Assembly (NCBI GenBank): GCA_040006075.1
Contig: JBDTXR010000004.1
Coordinates: 21,457-53,456, forward strand
Direction of reading: 5' to 3'
From: Byssovorax sp.
GTDB taxonomy: Bacteria > Myxococcota_A > Polyangia > Polyangiales > Polyangiaceae
DNA: 32,000 nucleotides
In this document: one piece after another, positions 8,963 through 17,001 of the stretch
How positions within the stretch are numbered: the stretch's first letter is position 1
How the letters are laid out: the number at the start of each line of letters is the position of its first letter
Translations under genes and position numbers: made by a program
The notes under the pieces: model-generated
What the model saw: only the letters and a program-made list of their open reading frames with translations
Database searches by the model: none
Told to the model about the DNA's origin: nothing

Positions 8963-9075
8963 GCATCTTGCGTAAATGGTTGAAAGAACAGCCAAAATAC
9001 GGCGGATTTCACCATAAAAACCGGACGGACCGTCCCCATCGCGAAAAATAAAAGCGCAAGGGCGAAACTTTTCTC

Positions 9076-9104
9076 TTGCCCGCTCCGTCGAAGACCCGTA
9101 TTAA
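9076..9104 (+). promoter_or_regulatory. sigma70-like promoter P1 (TTGCCC - 17 nt - TATTAA)
   Basis: The -35 is TTGCCC at 9076-9081, the spacer is 17 nt, and the -10 is TATTAA at 9099-9104. An A/T-rich tract (about 9038-9070) lies upstream. The same layout is conserved in the second copy at 10245-10273. Confidence 0.5.
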
Positions 9105-9124
9105 TCAGCCACTAGGAATTCGCC

Positions 9125-9313
9125 ATGACACCCCGCCTGACCAACGACCAACCTCTGAACAAGAAGCCCACCATGTGGGATAGTCTTGCCCAGGGGGCGT
9201 CCTTGGCCGGGCGCGTCGAAAGCGGATATCACTTCACGTTTGCCCATGCCTTCGGTTGTCAGGTCGCGTCGCGAATTGCGCGCAGGCTCGGTACCCCGGA
9301 GGATGGCTCCTAG
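9125..9313 (+). CDS. small conserved ORF, 62 aa, copy 1 (unknown function)
   Basis: AGGAA lies 6 nt upstream of the ATG. A paralogue at 10294-10482 has the same length and an aligned stop. The two 6-nt indels between the copies keep the frame. Five of 7 substitutions across the ...FGCQVASRIA... segment are synonymous. Confidence 0.5.
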   Translation: MTPRLTNDQPLNKKPTMWDSLAQGASLAGRVESGYHFTFAHAFGCQVASRIARRLGTPEDGS

Positions 9314-9348
9314 AGCGGCACCAACACCCGTCATTCCGTGACGATTGT

Positions 9349-9380
9349 GAAGGCCGCCCAGGGAAACCCAGGCGGCCTTC
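9349..9380 (+). terminator. conserved GC hairpin, copy 1 (terminator/attenuator or processing hairpin after small ORF 1)
   Basis: A 10-bp stem GAAGGCCGCC/GGCGGCCTTC encloses a loop that can pair further (GGG-AAA-CCC). It is followed by GGCGTTTCC, which is only a weak U-tract. Homologous hairpins lie at 9784-9816 and 10518-10550. Confidence 0.4.
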
Positions 9381-9783
9381 GGCGTTTCCGGGGTCCGGTT
9401 CTCGAACCGGATCTCGGCGCGGCGAGCCGCTCGGTCTCCGGAGTCATCAACAGCGTGGGCCGGTCGACCAGACCAGCGATTTATTTGTGCGCCCGGGGTG
9501 CGAACCAGGGGTGTGCAACAGGGGAGTAGTGCGTCCAGCGGGGGTGAGATGGGGAGTCTCATCTGGTCTGCTGGGCTTCGGGACAACCATTATGAAGCGG
9601 TGGACTACCATTAACGTCGCATTGAGCGCGAGCGATCTCCATCGCCCGCAGCATTGCGAATTCAATGGTTTGGCGTCATCGCGACCAATCGCCTCCAGCG
9701 GAGCGCAAGCGCGCTCGTTCGGCCTCGCCGGGCAGCTCGGGGATCGCTCCTAGGGCACCATTCGCCGTCGATTTCGACGCGCG

Positions 9784-9816
9784 GAGGGCCGCCCCGGGAC
9801 ACCGAGGCGGCCTTCG
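9784..9816 (+). terminator. conserved GC hairpin, copy 3 (orphan 3' fragment of the small-ORF module)
   Basis: The stem is GAGGGCCGCC/GGCGGCCTTC. An A-U pair in copy 1 is replaced here by G.U. The flanks GCTCCTAG...CACC upstream and TTCGCCGTTTCAGGGTC downstream align with the ends of copies 1 and 2 (region 9745-9829). Confidence 0.35.
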
Positions 9817-9889
9817 CCGTTTCAGGGTCAGGGGTAGTGACAGACACGTCGTGTGCGCGGCGTGGTCGGGGAACGTGCGCCATTTCTAT

Positions 9890-9970
9890 GTGGGAGCTGG
9901 GCATCGGTGCGCCCAGGCGTCTGTAAAACGTCCGCCCTCGGGCCTGGAGGTTCAACTCCTCCCTTCCACA
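9890..9970 (+). tRNA. tRNA-Tyr (GTA)
   Basis: Acceptor GTGGGAG/CTTCCAC (1 G.U). D-arm GGGC-ATCGGTGC-GCCC. Anticodon arm GGCGT-CTGTAAA-ACGTC. 13-nt variable arm (class II). T-arm GGAGG-TTCAACT-CCTCC. A73; no CCA encoded. Confidence 0.75.
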
Positions 9971-9975
9971 CCGCA

Positions 9976-10055
9976 GCGCGGGATCTCCGCGCCCTGGTCT
10001 CTGACATCCGAACGTTCGATAGCATGGAAGAGGACGCCAGCGTGCGTCCTCTCGT
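9976..10055 (+). repeat. 80-nt inter-tRNA spacer, copy 1 (paralogue at 10841-10920)
   Basis: It aligns along its whole length with 10841-10920. Conserved hairpins are GCGCGG-loop-CCGCGC and GAGGACGC-loop-GCGTCCTC, and the central block is CTCTGACATCCGAACGT. Confidence 0.7.
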
Positions 10056-10128
10056 TCCGGGGTAGCCAGATGGCAAAGCGCTCGCTTGTTGAGCGAGTCG
10101 TGTGGGAGCTCGATGCTCCCCCCCGGAG
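10056..10128 (+). tRNA. tRNA-Asn (GTT), copy 1, with degenerate T-loop (possible pseudogene)
   Basis: Acceptor TCCGGGG/CCCCGGA. Anticodon arm CTCGC-TTGTTGA-GCGAG. The T-arm GGGAG-CTCGATG-CTCCC departs from the TTCGAnT consensus. G73 and CCA are encoded. Confidence 0.5.
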
Positions 10129-10244
10129 CCATTGTTTCATGGAGACATGAATCCATCCAAAGGCTTCAATTTGCCTGAAATTCGTGGACATAAAGAGTCT
10201 TCGAGCAGGCCAGAAAGAAAATCAAAAAACGAGAAACTTTATCC

Positions 10245-10273
10245 TTGCATGGTTCGTCGAAGCAGCGTAGTAA
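10245..10273 (+). promoter_or_regulatory. sigma70-like promoter P2 (TTGCAT - 17 nt - TAGTAA)
   Basis: The -35 is TTGCAT at 10245-10250, the spacer is 17 nt, and the -10 is TAGTAA at 10268-10273. An A-rich tract (AGAAAGAAAATCAAAAAACGAGAAAC) lies upstream. It is positionally homologous to P1. Confidence 0.5.
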
Positions 10274-10293
10274 CCACCCCACAGGAACTCGCC

Positions 10294-15748: not shown

Positions 15749-15821
15749 ATCCATGTGGCGTAACTGGCAACCGCGGCGGTCTCAGAAACCGTTTTTGGGG
15801 GTTCGACTCCCCCCATGGATA
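15749..15821 (+). tRNA. tRNA with Leu anticodon CAG but short (5-nt) variable loop
   Basis: Acceptor ATCCATG/CATGGAT. D-arm GCG-TAACTGGCAAC-CGC. Anticodon arm GCGGT-CTCAGAA-ACCGT. Variable loop TTTTG. T-arm GGGGG-TTCGACT-CCCCC. A73. Confidence 0.65.
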
Positions 15822-15827
15822 TTTCAC

Positions 15828-15909
15828 GGCACTGTGGCGAAATGGCAAACGTGGCGGACTGAGATTCCGTGCCCGAGAGGGTTTGTGGGTTCGATTCCCA
15901 CCAGTGCTA
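15828..15909 (+). tRNA. tRNA-Leu (GAG), class II
   Basis: Acceptor GGCACTG/CAGTGCT. D-arm GCG-AAATGGCAAA-CGT. Anticodon arm GCGGA-CTGAGAT-TCCGT. 15-nt variable arm GCCC-GAGA-GGGT-TTG. T-arm GTGGG-TTCGATT-CCCAC. A73. Confidence 0.8.
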
Positions 15910-15925
15910 CCGATCGATGAACCAT

Positions 15926-15999
15926 GCTCGGGTGACGTAAATGGCAAACGTGGCCGCCTCAAAAACGGTCGATTGCGGGTTCGAGTCCCGCCCCGAGCA
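15926..15999 (+). tRNA. tRNA with Leu anticodon CAA but short variable loop
   Basis: Acceptor GCTCGGG/CCCGAGC. D-arm ACG-TAAATGGCAAA-CGT. Anticodon arm GCCGC-CTCAAAA-ACGGT (C.A at 31-39); an alternative fold is a 9-nt loop closed by GGCCG/CGGTC. Variable loop CGATT. T-arm GCGGG-TTCGAGT-CCCGC. A73. Confidence 0.6.
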
Positions 16000-16114
16000 C
16001 CGGGTGGATCTTCTGGGCGATGGTCGCTCAGGGGCTGCCCATCTCCCGTTCGGCGCGCGAGCGCCTGGAGAGCTGTGATGAAGATGAGGCGAAGCTAGAG
16101 GAACGAGGTGGACC

Positions 16115-16618
16115 ATGATCGCGCTGACGCTGTTGCTCACTCCGTGGATGAGGCCCCACAAGATCATTTCATGGCAGGTCGCCGTGACGATGAGCTTCCT
16201 GGGAAAGGTCGAGGTCATCGAGGAGTACGACGAGGAGATCGCCTCTCCGTCGCTCTCCATCCGCGCGCCCGCCGTGGTCCGCTTGAAGCGGCCCCTCGGC
16301 GGGATGAAGCGTGGAGTGAAGTTCTCGCGCAACAATGTCTTCGCGCGCGACGATTTTCGCTGCCAGTACTGCGGCGCGCGGAAGTCGGCGCGGGAGCTGA
16401 ACTACGACCACGTCGTGCCCCGCGTTCAGGGCGGCGCGACGGTCTGGGACAACATCGTCGCCTCTTGCTACGACTGCAACGGCAAGAAGCGTGGTCGGAC
16501 CCCGGAGCAAGCCGGGATGAAGCTGCTCCGGACCCCGGTGAAGCCCCGCTCGCTGCCGATGACCACGGTCCTCTCGCGGGAGGGAAACCACCCGGAGTCG
16601 TGGCTCCACTACTGCTGA
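16115..16618 (+). CDS. HNH endonuclease
   Basis: 167-aa ORF with GAGGTGG upstream of the ATG. The HNH/zinc-finger core is FRCQYCGARKSARELNYDHVVPRVQGGATVWDNIVASCYDCNGKK. Confidence 0.8.
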   Translation: MIALTLLLTPWMRPHKIISWQVAVTMSFLGKVEVIEEYDEEIASPSLSIRAPAVVRLKRPLGGMKRGVKFSRNNVFARDDFRCQYCGARKSARELNYDHVVPRVQGGATVWDNIVASCYDCNGKKRGRTPEQAGMKLLRTPVKPRSLPMTTVLSREGNHPESWLHYC

Positions 16619-16623
16619 GCCAA

Positions 16624-16663
16624 CCTCGCTCCCGCTCGCCGTTCTTGCAGAGCGGGAGCGAGG
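16624..16663 (+). terminator. 12-bp GC hairpin after the HNH gene
   Basis: CCTCGCTCCCGC-16 nt-GCGGGAGCGAGG, followed by the pyrimidine-rich TCTCTCCTCTCG. There is no clean U-tract. Confidence 0.4.
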
Positions 16664-16683
16664 TCTCTCCTCTCGAATCTGCT

Positions 16684-16770
16684 GGAAGATGAATCGGCCA
16701 GGGGCCGGACCTGCTTGGAAAGCAGCGTGCACCTCGACAGGGGTGTGGGGATCGAGACCTCCATCTTCCG
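16684..16770 (+). tRNA. tRNA-Ser (GGA) with 8/4 (Sec/allo-tRNA-like) architecture
   Basis: 8-bp acceptor GGAAGATG/CATCTTCC. D-arm with a 6-bp stem and 3-nt loop (TCGGCC-AGG-GGCCGG, T.G closing pair). Anticodon arm CTGC-TTGGAAA-GCAG. Long variable arm (CACC...GGTG). 4-bp T-stem GGGG-ATCGAGA-CCTC. G73. Confidence 0.6.
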
Positions 16771-16786
16771 CTCTCACGTTTCACAT

Positions 16787-16871
16787 GGAAGCTGAACCGG
16801 CATGGTGTCGGGCCCGGTTGCTACCCGGTGCGTGCCCTCCAGGGTATGGTGTTCGATTCACCCGGCTTCCG
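16787..16871 (+). tRNA. tRNA-Ser (GCT) with 8/4 architecture
   Basis: 8-bp acceptor GGAAGCTG/CGGCTTCC (1 G.U). D-arm with a 5-bp stem and 5-nt loop (CCGGC-ATGGT-GTCGG). Anticodon arm CCGG-TTGCTAC-CCGG. Long variable arm (CCCT-CC-AGGG). 4-bp T-stem GGTG-TTCGATT-CACC. G73. Confidence 0.65.
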
Positions 16872-16899
16872 CCGACGGGCCGTGATGATCGCGTTCCAT

Positions 16900-16970
16900 T
16901 CGGGGATCGTCCAAGGGCAGGACGGGGGTTTTTGACACCTCAAATCGTGGTTCGAATCCACGTCTCCGAG
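16900..16970 (+). tRNA. tRNA-Gln (TTG)
   Basis: Acceptor TCGGGGA/TCTCCGA (U1-A72). D-arm GTCC-AAGGGCA-GGAC. Anticodon arm GGGGT-TTTTGAC-ACCTC. T-arm CGTGG-TTCGAAT-CCACG. G73 and CCA encoded. Confidence 0.85.
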
Positions 16971-17001
16971 CCAGCCTTCCAGTCTATCGTTCGCTCGGGT
17001 G

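Follow-up and report, generated by a model that had tools for sequence, protein, structure and literature searches.

Most work on long tRNA arrays, whose purpose is debated, concerns cyanobacteria, mycobacteria, and Acidithiobacillus. Here we describe an array from Byssovorax sp. (Myxococcota), located on contig JBDTXR010000004.1 within a stretch of 32,000 nucleotides (nt) that was analysed as a whole and is called the window below. The array occupies positions 9890–16973 and lies between gcdH and rlmE. Embedded in it are rsr, which encodes an orthologue of Ro60, a gene for an HNH endonuclease, and structured RNAs that are not tRNAs; at its head are small open reading frames (ORFs) followed by strong hairpins. 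Pfam identified the bordering genes as an acyl-CoA dehydrogenase (gcdH-like, 7775–8962) and FtsJ/RlmE (17002–17610, minus strand). Both borders, as well as the embedded rsr and HNH genes, had been named in a first-pass annotation made from the sequence alone, and Pfam confirmed all four.

tRNA genes of the array

With default settings, ARAGORN identifies 34 tRNA genes between 9890 and 16973, every one on the plus strand, and sees no tRNA in the remainder of the 32-kb window. Three more, Thr-GGT, Ser-GGA, and Ser-GCT, appear at a relaxed threshold (-ps90), for a total of 37. The first-pass annotation had given 38 tRNA genes on the plus strand. Its strand assignment and its itemized list, which sums to 37, agree with ARAGORN, but its count of 38 does not; the extra unit is most likely the tRNA-like element at 13445–13582, which ARAGORN calls only as an "intron-containing" tRNA. 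Coverage of all 20 amino acids, claimed in the same place, holds if both weak Ser tRNAs are counted and falls to 19 at the default settings. The density, 34–37 tRNAs in 7.08 kb, is about 5 per kb with rsr and the HNH gene counted in, and the spacers between tRNA genes are mostly 0–110 nt. Two spacers are purine-rich: 13586–13650 (AAGAACAAGAGAGGAGAAGAAAAGAGCAGAG..), which follows the Y-like RNA described below, and 14345–14398 (GAGACGAGGAGAAAGGAGAGAAGCACGAGAA..), which follows tRNA-Thr(GGT).

The Rfam tRNA gathering score is reached or exceeded by 27 of the 37 (35–69 bits, median about 54), so that by covariance-model scoring most are not pseudogenes. Another five have their best match in the tRNA-Sec model, which belongs to the same clan as tRNA, at scores under the tRNA-Sec cutoff. 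The ARAGORN models of all 37 have stems paired without mismatch. The T loop is canonical or near-canonical in 36, the exception being Ser-GGA, and the anticodon loops are mostly ordinary, with U33 and a purine at position 37. Other parts depart from the standard architecture. U8 is missing in 14 tRNAs, the D stem is short in many and only 2–3 bp in several, and the encoded 3′ end is CCA in only 11 and CCG in 13. Bacterial tRNA-Leu without a long variable arm is unusual; the array has two such genes, tRNA-Leu(CAG) (15749–15821, 73 nt) and tRNA-Leu(CAA) (15926–16001, 76 nt), and the short tRNA-Leu(CAA) is also kept in related arrays. The earlier remark that many members deviate from canonical tRNA architecture is fair for these traits, but the deviation is moderate, with pairing intact and 36 of the 37 T loops in order.

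We compared each tRNA of the window with the same-anticodon tRNAs of ten Polyangiaceae arrays and found sequence identities from 44 to 100%. At stem positions, double changes that compensate each other number 1041 and single changes compatible with pairing 411, versus 303 broken cells, part of which are alignment slips. Because compensatory and compatible changes outnumber broken cells, the tRNA structure is evidently under selection, and the maintenance of pairing through so many compensatory changes argues that the genes are not pseudogenes. The array members are probably functional tRNAs.

Of the 61 sense codons, 52 are within reach of the 37 anticodons if standard wobble rules apply. In six local genes, with 2086 codons in all and a GC content at third codon positions (GC3) of 0.93, these 52 account for 96.8%. 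The anticodon set is tuned to host codon usage.

Ro60, Y-like RNAs, and leader units

The 560-amino acid product of rsr has a TROVE domain (PF05731, 2.4e-44) and a C-terminal vWA_Ro60 domain (PF25045, 6.1e-65). It matches the NCBIfam Rsr model over its full length at 543 bits, which is under the equivalog cutoff of 900. Identity is 94% to a protein from a JGI metagenome and 67–77% to the Ro60 proteins of Sorangium, Chondromyces, Minicystis, and Polyangium; a look-up of the exact Ro60 sequence gave no match. The RlmE protein of the window is 100% identical to that of a metagenome-assembled genome labelled Byssovorax sp., which together with the Ro60 identities places the window in the Polyangiaceae. 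Directly before the ATG, the rsr leader folds into a hairpin that is kept in 12 of the 12 aligned loci reaching the rsr start codon; given this position, the ribosome-binding site is likely within the hairpin. The hairpin shares a UUGCCC..GGGCCGRAGGAGG motif with an arm of the Y-like RNA, which suggests that Ro60 may regulate its own translation, with the Y RNA as competitor.

This Y-like RNA (13445–13582), conserved next to rsr at a length of 125–140 nt, has the topology of a tRNA. Its own 5′ and 3′ ends form a 7-bp acceptor stem, which is followed by a canonical D arm. The position of the anticodon arm is taken by an 8-bp arm that contains an inner hairpin, UUGCCC..GGGYCG. Then come an invariant GGUUAYC (GGUUAUC in the window), a short V hairpin, and a canonical T arm, and the 3′ end is often NCCA (UCCA in the window copy). 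In an alignment of 16 homologues, 98.7% of cells are paired, and compensatory changes occur at 16 of the 28 pairs, including all 7 acceptor pairs. None of 500 shuffles was as good, and slid controls paired 35–53%. A covariance model built from the homologues (R1) scores 127 bits in the window, and about 54 bits or less against ordinary tRNAs of ~75 nt. Of 83 related Ro60 loci, 64 have full-length copies (≥60 bits), which invariably share the strand of rsr and often number 2–4; such copies also occur at Ro60 loci without a tRNA array. Four Actinomycetota Ro60 arrays of 19–23 tRNAs (L060, L061, L082, L083) give no R1 match of ≥60 bits; their Y RNA, if any, would be of another type.

A search of the window at the Rfam gathering scores gave tRNAs only. 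At its gathering score of 69 bits, the Rfam model of the bacterial Y RNA YrlA (RF02553) finds nothing in the window or in seven related loci. Of the weaker matches in the window (21–31 bits), the best two (30.9 and 28.7) span two adjacent tRNA-like units, and we rejected the weak matches as the "dimeric tRNA" artefact of YrlA searches described by Chen et al. (PMC4201824). Several YrlA-type features are nonetheless present in the RNA at 13445–13582: tRNA-like T and D arms, YUAY before V, a GNCGAA-like motif, and a location less than 4 kb from rsr on the same strand. It is the order of the blocks that differs. YrlA consists of a 5′ Ro-binding strand, V, T arm, looped acceptor stem, D arm, and 3′ strand, which in the YrlA of phage Catera reads GGCCGAnnG..CGGUUACC, V, T arm, looped acceptor stem, D arm, GCGCUUAAACGCCG. 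In the window the order is acceptor 5′ strand, D arm, GCGCCUAAACACCG.., loop, ..GGGUCG..GGACGGUUAUC, V, T arm, acceptor 3′ strand. Common blocks in a different order indicate a circular permutation of YrlA with true tRNA topology. On this reading of its sequence, the RNA is a circularly permuted YrlA-like Y RNA and would be predicted to bind Ro60.

Four further hairpins (Table 1) carry GGGUCG and CGGUUAUC-type motifs. The sequence SGGTTAWC has six sites in the whole window; five of them fall within the Y-like RNA and these hairpins, as against 1 expected. The two hairpins that adjoin tRNA-His genes are kept upstream of rsr across Polyangiaceae genera. Both show compensatory changes in the inner stem, those of hairpin b being GCUCGG/CCGAGC, GCGCUCGG/CCGAGCGC, GGCCUCGG/CCGAGGCC, and GAUCUCGG/CCGAGAUC; this covariation was read by eye, as RNAalifold, with the 3′ strand misaligned, gave the outer stem only. 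The His-adjacent hairpins resemble YrlB, and all four hairpins, which we regard as YrlB-like, may bind Ro60. Folds, covariation, and the R1 model bear out the non-tRNA structured RNAs of the first-pass annotation as real and conserved, and with Ro60 and Y-RNA-like RNAs both found, its RNA-surveillance component is real as well.

The head of the array consists of three units (ORFs at 9125, 9583, and 10294), each with an ORF of ~60 codons, a small hairpin, a very strong hairpin, and then GUUU. A duplicated small ORF with its own promoters had been reported here; the ORF and the promoter-like sites are real, but the copies number three, not two. The units at 9125 and 10294 also have a promoter-like site and a Shine-Dalgarno sequence with ATG. 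In a cross-genus alignment of Polyangiaceae, the TTGC and GTAnT positions of the promoter-like site are invariant. Indels between the ORF copies are multiples of three, and the stop codon is constant in position and variable in identity (TAG, TGA, TAA). Leader ORFs of 58–67 codons occur in Sorangium, Polyangium, and Minicystis, with a variable body and a conserved C-terminus, ..LG[NT]PE[DN]xx; the window ORF has no match in Pfam, NCBIfam, PHROG, or PADLOC. The hairpin stands at a fixed 31–40 nt from the leader stop and is nearly invariant across genera. It is a candidate conditional terminator, and the unit has the layout of a candidate leader-peptide attenuator.

Table 1. Features of the block, with positions in the window and the basis for each.
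Feature	Position	Strand	Basis
Promoter-like site 1 (TTGCCC, 17 nt, TATTAA; A/T-rich stretch upstream)	9076–9110	+	Read from sequence
Leader ORF copy 1 (62 codons; C-terminus RRLGTPEDGS)	9125–9313	+	Copy alignment, relatives
Small hairpin (9329–9343), strong hairpin GAAGGCCGCC..GGCGGCCTTC (9349–9380), then GGCGTTTCC	9329–9389	+	Repeat family D14, fold
Leader ORF, degenerate third copy (ends ..GQLGDRS; same hairpin after)	9583–9753	+	Translation of ORF 9256–9753
Strong hairpin, second copy (60 nt before tRNA-Tyr)	9784–9827	+	Repeat family D14, fold z-score −2.9
tRNA-Tyr(GTA)	9890–9972	+	ARAGORN
tRNA-Asn(GTT)	10056–10131	+	ARAGORN, Rfam scan
Promoter-like site 2 (TTGCAT, 17 nt, TAGTAA)	10245–10278	+	Sequence, copy and genus alignments
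Leader ORF copy 2 (62 codons)	10294–10482	+	Copy alignment, relatives
Hairpins after leader copy 2 (strong hairpin at about 10519–10551), 20 nt before tRNA-Lys	10499–10570	+	Repeat family D14
Block of seven tRNAs: Lys(CTT)	10582–10654	+	ARAGORN, Rfam, covariation (block 10582–11242)
Lys(TTT)	10675–10747	+	As above
Gln(CTG)	10765–10839	+	As above
Asn(GTT)	10921–10995	+	As above
Thr(CGT)	10999–11071	+	As above
Glu(TTC)	11082–11155	+	As above
Phe(GAA)	11169–11242	+	As above
tRNA-His(GTG) copy a (encoded G-1 pairs C73; CCA encoded)	11266–11339	+	ARAGORN
YrlB-like hairpin a (GGACGGGUCG..CUCGGUUAUC..CCGUCC)	11340–11410	+	Fold, cross-genus conservation
tRNA-His(GTG) copy b	11446–11519	+	ARAGORN
YrlB-like hairpin b	11520–11588	+	Fold z-score −5.0
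rsr 5′ leader hairpin (UUGCCCGG..CCGGGCCGGAGG)	11608–11639	+	Directly before ATG, ribosome-binding site probably inside
rsr (Ro60 orthologue, 560 amino acids)	11640–13322	+	Pfam TROVE and vWA_Ro60
tRNA-Arg(CCT)	13362–13436	+	ARAGORN, Rfam
Y-like RNA with tRNA topology (123 nt downstream of rsr)	13445–13582	+	Alignment A3 (16 homologues), model R1
tRNA-Trp(CCA)	13655–13726	+	ARAGORN
Y-like hairpin (GGCGGACCGGAG..GGGUUAAC..)	13726–13797	+	Repeat family D18, fold
tRNA-Ala(CGC)	13878–13952	+	ARAGORN, Rfam
tRNA-Asp(GTC)	13990–14063	+	ARAGORN, Rfam
Second Y-like hairpin	14064–14140	+	Repeat family D18; fold no better than shuffled sequence
tRNA block, part 1: Ala(GGC), Thr(GGT; 14272–14347, relaxed only), Gly(TCC), Gly(GCC), Cys(GCA), Arg(TCT), Glu(CTC), Arg(ACG), Arg(CCG)	14196–16001 (parts 1 and 2)	+	
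tRNA block, part 2: CAT x2, Pro(CGG), Pro(GGG), Val(CAC), Ile(GAT), Val(GAC), Leu(CAG), Leu(GAG), Leu(CAA)		+	
HNH endonuclease (167 amino acids)	16115–16618	+	Pfam HNH and HNH_5
tRNA-Ser(GGA)	16684–16771	+	ARAGORN, relaxed only
tRNA-Ser(GCT)	16787–16873	+	ARAGORN, relaxed only
tRNA-Gln(TTG)	16900–16973	+	ARAGORN

Insertion and spread of the array

The possibility raised in the first-pass annotation that the island is an insertion is upheld by the gcdH–rlmE interval of relatives. In Sorangium sp. So ce117 the gene order is L3, rlmE, 360 bp, gcdH, YkuD, with no tRNA in the junction; compared with Sorangium, therefore, the 8 kb has been inserted. At the same gcdH/rlmE junction, Minicystis rosea and another JGI contig each have the array, and in Sorangium and Chondromyces crocatus a block of Ro60, co-oriented tRNAs, and HNH lies between unrelated genes (12 and 35 tRNAs, respectively, in the first two such loci). 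Sorangium arrays have 7–13 tRNAs by default ARAGORN and 12–19 at the relaxed threshold, and cover 7–10 amino acids. The M. rosea genome has 88 tRNA genes (PMC8436480), and at least 54 are at its Ro60 locus. These counts and the partial Sorangium arrays imply a separate housekeeping set in relatives. As judged from these and from the empty Sorangium junction, the array appears to be extra to the housekeeping tRNA set, and the earlier description of it as auxiliary stands on the same relatives.

The window is flanked by YkuD, gcdH, rlmE, and L3. Neither these flanks nor the called genes of six related loci (L001–L003, L084–L086) include structural, replication, or integration genes of phages, and a prophage reading was rejected on this basis. 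The genes at the downstream end of the array differ between loci. In the relative whose Ro60 is 94% identical (L001), a Thg1-family gene lies at the 3′ end of the array (15789–16559); this family adds nucleotides in the 3′–5′ direction and acts on tRNA-His. In C. crocatus the 3′ end (L003, 17001–21695) has an RNA-ligase/kinase gene and a large MJ1316/2′,5′-ligase/poly(A)-polymerase-like gene.

Some features of these surroundings were noted in passing. The L3 gene next to rlmE (17689–18357, minus strand; TIGR03625, 228 bits, over the cutoff) is full-length and stands alone outside a ribosomal protein operon, and the L3–rlmE pair is kept in Sorangium, Minicystis, and other Polyangiaceae. The 360-bp spacer of Sorangium So ce117 (L084, 8620–8860) contains a low-complexity inverted repeat with GTCGTG/CACGAC-type hexamers, which might be a scar or a target site. 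The M. rosea array (L085) has an inserted gene pair at 12105–14665, encoding an ARPP-1/ARPP-2 domain protein and a 534-amino acid protein; a permuted "tmRNA*" that ARAGORN calls at 14316–14866 of the same locus is probably an artefact of neighbouring tRNA-like pieces.

We surveyed related Ro60 loci by a Ro60 alignment scan with one genome per species, which gave 80 loci and, with three fetched earlier, 83. Co-oriented arrays (at least 7 tRNAs on the rsr strand) occur at 46 of them, including all Polyangiaceae and many Kofleriaceae/Haliangiales. Array loci are also found in Chloroflexota, Actinomycetota (Solirubrobacterales, Gaiellaceae), Armatimonadota, and Verrucomicrobiota, which with Myxococcota makes at least five phyla. 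The order of genes is partly common, being ..Phe-His-[Ro60]-Arg.. in Polyangiaceae and Phe-Lys-Gly-Thr-[Ro60]-Asn-Glu-Met in Kofleriaceae. The window Ro60 is also 48% identical to Ro-like proteins of cluster C mycobacteriophages, and a homologue is present in 356 phage records. Among 80 Ro60 loci from IMG/VR, nine are accompanied by 7 or more co-oriented tRNAs, and one of the nine also has HNH. Three viral-classed IMG/VR contigs (L095, L101, L162) have Ro60 within arrays of 20–35 tRNAs; Ro60 identity is 55–64% in L095 and L101, L101 also has an HNH gene (47% identity), and L162 covers all 20 amino acids.

A TROVE gene has been reported in 20 of 29 archaeal tRNA clusters (PMC6333295). Our literature search found no paper that states a link between Ro60 and bacterial tRNA arrays or that describes myxobacterial arrays. 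We also could not find in the literature the extent to which Ro60 is embedded in bacterial tRNA arrays, a Y RNA with tRNA topology, or the conserved leader unit. Relative to what we found these appear to be new, with the proviso that reviews may mention them earlier.

The HNH protein is 41% identical (E 6e-26) to an HNH protein encoded just upstream of the 24-tRNA array of Nostoc/Anabaena PCC 7120 plasmid pCC7120delta, in which the array lies within the last 5 kb and the first 50 kb are without tRNA. It is 36% identical to one encoded inside the 32-tRNA array of Mycolicibacterium CBMA213 plasmid pCBMA213_1. The HNH gene is co-conserved with Ro60 arrays (41 sequences including the window; 38 of 86 other loci after removal of the overlapping L085 and L086). 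It runs in the same direction as Ro60 in all Myxococcota arrays examined, as well as in two Chloroflexota arrays and a single Desulfonema locus. The homologue search returned close relatives only and gave no wider picture. The protein could serve in mobility, or in nucleic-acid cleavage during a response.

Proposed function and relation to known systems

By the definition of Tran et al. 2016 (PMC4758250), a tRNA array unit comprises 20 or more tRNA genes with no fewer than 2 per kb. L-arrays are long and usually silent, supplement the normal tRNA set, and have spread horizontally; a conserved HNH gene adjoins them, genes for RNA processing such as RtcB lie nearby, and the Anabaena L-array is induced by translation inhibitors and confers a survival benefit (PMC8421152). 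The window locus has the number and density of genes, the co-orientation, the patchy distribution and insertion, and the linked HNH gene of such units. The homology of its HNH protein to that of the Anabaena array argues that the locus is an L-array-type extra tRNA array, and we assign the interval 8963–17001 to the L-array/tRNA array unit kind as far as sequence features allow; induction by stress would be an analogy. The first-pass view that such arrays are known mainly from phages does not hold, since long bacterial arrays with HNH and RNA-repair neighbours are published (PMC8421152, PMC4758250, PMC5966550), as are TROVE genes inside archaeal tRNA clusters (PMC6333295).

With moderate confidence, we propose that this extra block between convergent gcdH and rlmE combines a stress replacement pool of tRNAs with Ro60/Y-RNA surveillance. 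The head promoters would produce long precursor transcripts of the block, with read-through gated, perhaps inducibly, at the leader hairpins. RNase P, 3′-end processing enzymes, and the CCA-adding enzyme would release the tRNAs and the Y RNA, and Ro60, translated from the same transcript, would assemble with the Y RNAs. The cell would thereby gain in one step a sequence-divergent replacement tRNA pool and a Ro60/Y-RNA particle for damaged or misfolded RNA, with a benefit under translational stress or tRNA damage by antibiotics, ribotoxins, or anticodon nucleases. Roles as a stress back-up pool or a tRNA-nuclease-resistant pool, both suggested in the first-pass annotation, would be in line with the Anabaena experiments. 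Indirect support comes from the variable RNA-repair genes beside related arrays, from the transcription of Salmonella Y RNA under the activator RtcR (PMC4201824), and from the switching on of the RNA repair operon by RtcR upon tRNA damage, as two papers report (PMC7790460, PMC10159003).

Several observations weigh against this proposal. Five of the 37 tRNAs (Arg-ACG, both CAT, Ile-GAT, and Ser-GGA) are called by ARAGORN alone and have no Rfam match, and the two Ser tRNAs (Ser-GGA and Ser-GCT) are weak. The array has no reader for UCG-Ser, which accounts for 2.8% of local codons and is the commonest Ser codon there; eight rare codons, seven ending in A plus UUA, likewise have none. Without a UCG-Ser reader the array is unable to support translation alone, and the earlier term "self-contained" does not apply to it. 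A generic sigma-70 scan did not call the head promoters and gave one match, overlapping tRNA-Trp, which is no more than chance; the head promoters therefore rest on their cross-genus conservation. GC content is 0.59–0.64 in the array versus about 0.70 in the flanks (0.66–0.69 in rsr), but such a decrease is usual for RNA genes, and base composition thus does not point to recent import. The evidence for a housekeeping set besides the array comes from relatives only. Lastly, HNH homologues without an adjacent array occur on a Rhizobium plasmid and on Acaryochloris pREB6, so that the HNH family is not exclusive to arrays.

The closest competitor overlaps the proposed stress pool and has a narrower selective agent. 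The tRNAs would escape anticodon nucleases and other tRNA-targeting toxins of competitors, prey, phages, or the host's own systems, and Ro60, Y RNA, and repair enzymes would clear or mend cleaved host tRNAs. The rapid divergence of array tRNAs between genera while their structure is kept would fit this, as would the Thg1 gene in L001 and the Rnl/PNK-like and 2′,5′-ligase-like genes of C. crocatus. PMC12803027 discusses a putative anti-defence role for mycobacterial tRNA array units. In phages, Ro-like genes are located inside or beside tRNA regions, and one Microbacterium phage has RtcB there as well. We nevertheless consider such a specialized bank rather unlikely. In the window we identified no partner toxin or nuclease, PADLOC gave no defence family match beyond a generic HNH domain, the anticodon loops are ordinary in most tRNAs, and the published L-array experiments concern general translational stress (PMC8421152).

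Distinctly less probable still is a selfish cassette of little benefit to the host, domesticated or hitch-hiking from the tRNA/Ro region of a large phage and kept and moved by HNH homing. The phage and IMG/VR homologues of Ro60 described above would agree with such an origin, and so would PHROG matches for both Ro60 and HNH, the Ro-like gene inside the tRNA region of phage Karimac, and a chromosomal site of the block that varies by genus. Yet the flanks of the window and of the related loci listed above hold no phage structural, replication, or integrase genes, the whole family retains the block with conserved gene order, the anticodon set fits the host GC3 of 0.93, and the tRNA and Y RNA structures are under purifying selection.

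That the array is the main or only tRNA complement of this organism is very improbable. It covers 19–20 amino acids and about 97% of local codons, but we rejected this on the evidence from relatives (the empty site and partial arrays of Sorangium, and the M. rosea counts), to which the lack of a UCG-Ser reader, the absence of a tRNA-Ile/Ala pair by rRNA genes in the window, and the many members scoring under typical tRNAs can be added. A decaying pseudogene array with chance structures, to which the 10 of 37 tRNAs under the gathering score or without a match, the unusual D arms, the missing U8, and the two short-armed tRNA-Leu might point, is scarcely credible and was rejected on covariation, given the 27 that pass, the widespread compensatory changes, and an order and content conserved across genera.

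We tentatively outline a broader picture that is possible, though short of probable. Ro60-centred arrays would form a cross-phylum mobile operon type, and the Y RNA would be an array member that is matured by RNase P and CCA addition and might be aminoacylated. The UUGCCC..GGGCCGRAGG motif common to the Y RNA and the ribosome-binding hairpin of rsr would imply an autoregulatory loop of Ro60, Y RNA, and rsr mRNA, and the leader peptide (LG[NT]PE..) would belong to a translation-sensing attenuator that gates entry into the array. If true, this suggests an origin of bacterial Y RNAs from tRNA genes within arrays of this type.

With one Ro60 clade built into arrays in many phyla, two poorly understood systems, spare tRNA sets and Ro60/Y-RNA surveillance, are tied into one unit and should be co-expressed. 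The Y RNA is a testable candidate for processing like a tRNA, and the leader ORF and hairpin are a candidate regulatory unit that could explain how an array senses translational trouble. Culturable relatives with the same block exist in Sorangium, Chondromyces, and Minicystis.

Among known systems, the Anabaena L-array of pCC7120delta is similar in its dozens of tightly spaced, co-oriented tRNA genes, which are extra to the normal set there and probably so here, in their patchy horizontal spread, in its adjoining homologous HNH gene, and in the RNA-processing/repair genes of its neighbourhood. The window array differs in being chromosomal, between housekeeping genes, and in Myxococcota, and its HNH gene is inside the array rather than upstream. 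Its embedded Ro60 and Y RNAs have no mention in the main text of PMC8421152, and its head has a leader ORF and hairpin in place of the 9-nt promoter repeats of Anabaena. Mycobacterial tRNA array units, found on chromosomes, plasmids, and phages (PMC5966550, PMC4758250), have a defining size and density (20 genes or more, no fewer than 2 per kb) that the window array also shows, and pCBMA213_1 also has its HNH gene inside the array; this array is unlike ours in being plasmid-borne, in its tRNA order, and in having no Ro60 in the 20-kb stretch examined. Haloarchaeal clusters (Morgado & Vicente 2019, PMC6333295) likewise contain a TROVE/Ro60-family gene, a likeness by description, and are associated with mobile elements and HNH genes, but their tRNAs are of archaeal type, usually number fewer than 20, and are described without a Y RNA or leader unit. 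The actinophages Karimac (Streptomyces) and Catera/Bxz1 (cluster C) have Ro-like genes (38–48% identity) in genomes with 20–40 tRNA genes, which in Karimac are co-oriented around the Ro-like gene. They differ in their many interspersed small phage ORFs and have no homologue of the window HNH next to Ro; in Catera the Ro gene is outside the array and YrlA has the canonical topology.

The Salmonella rsr/yrlBA/rtcBA locus and that of Mycobacterium smegmatis (Chen et al. 2014, PMC4201824) resemble the window in having Ro60 with tRNA-like and hairpin RNAs on the same strand within 2 kb. Unlike the Salmonella locus, the window has no RtcB, RtcA, or RtcR genes and its rsr is embedded in a tRNA array. 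Bacterial YrlA has the same GNCGAA-like motif, CGGUUAYC/YUAY, T arm, and D arm followed by CUUAAAC; the window RNA is permuted, its ends form the acceptor stem, and its Ro-binding arm is closed by a loop. The YrlA of M. smegmatis is opened by RNase P and receives CCA (PMC4201824), which gives it an open-acceptor topology like that of the window Y RNA.

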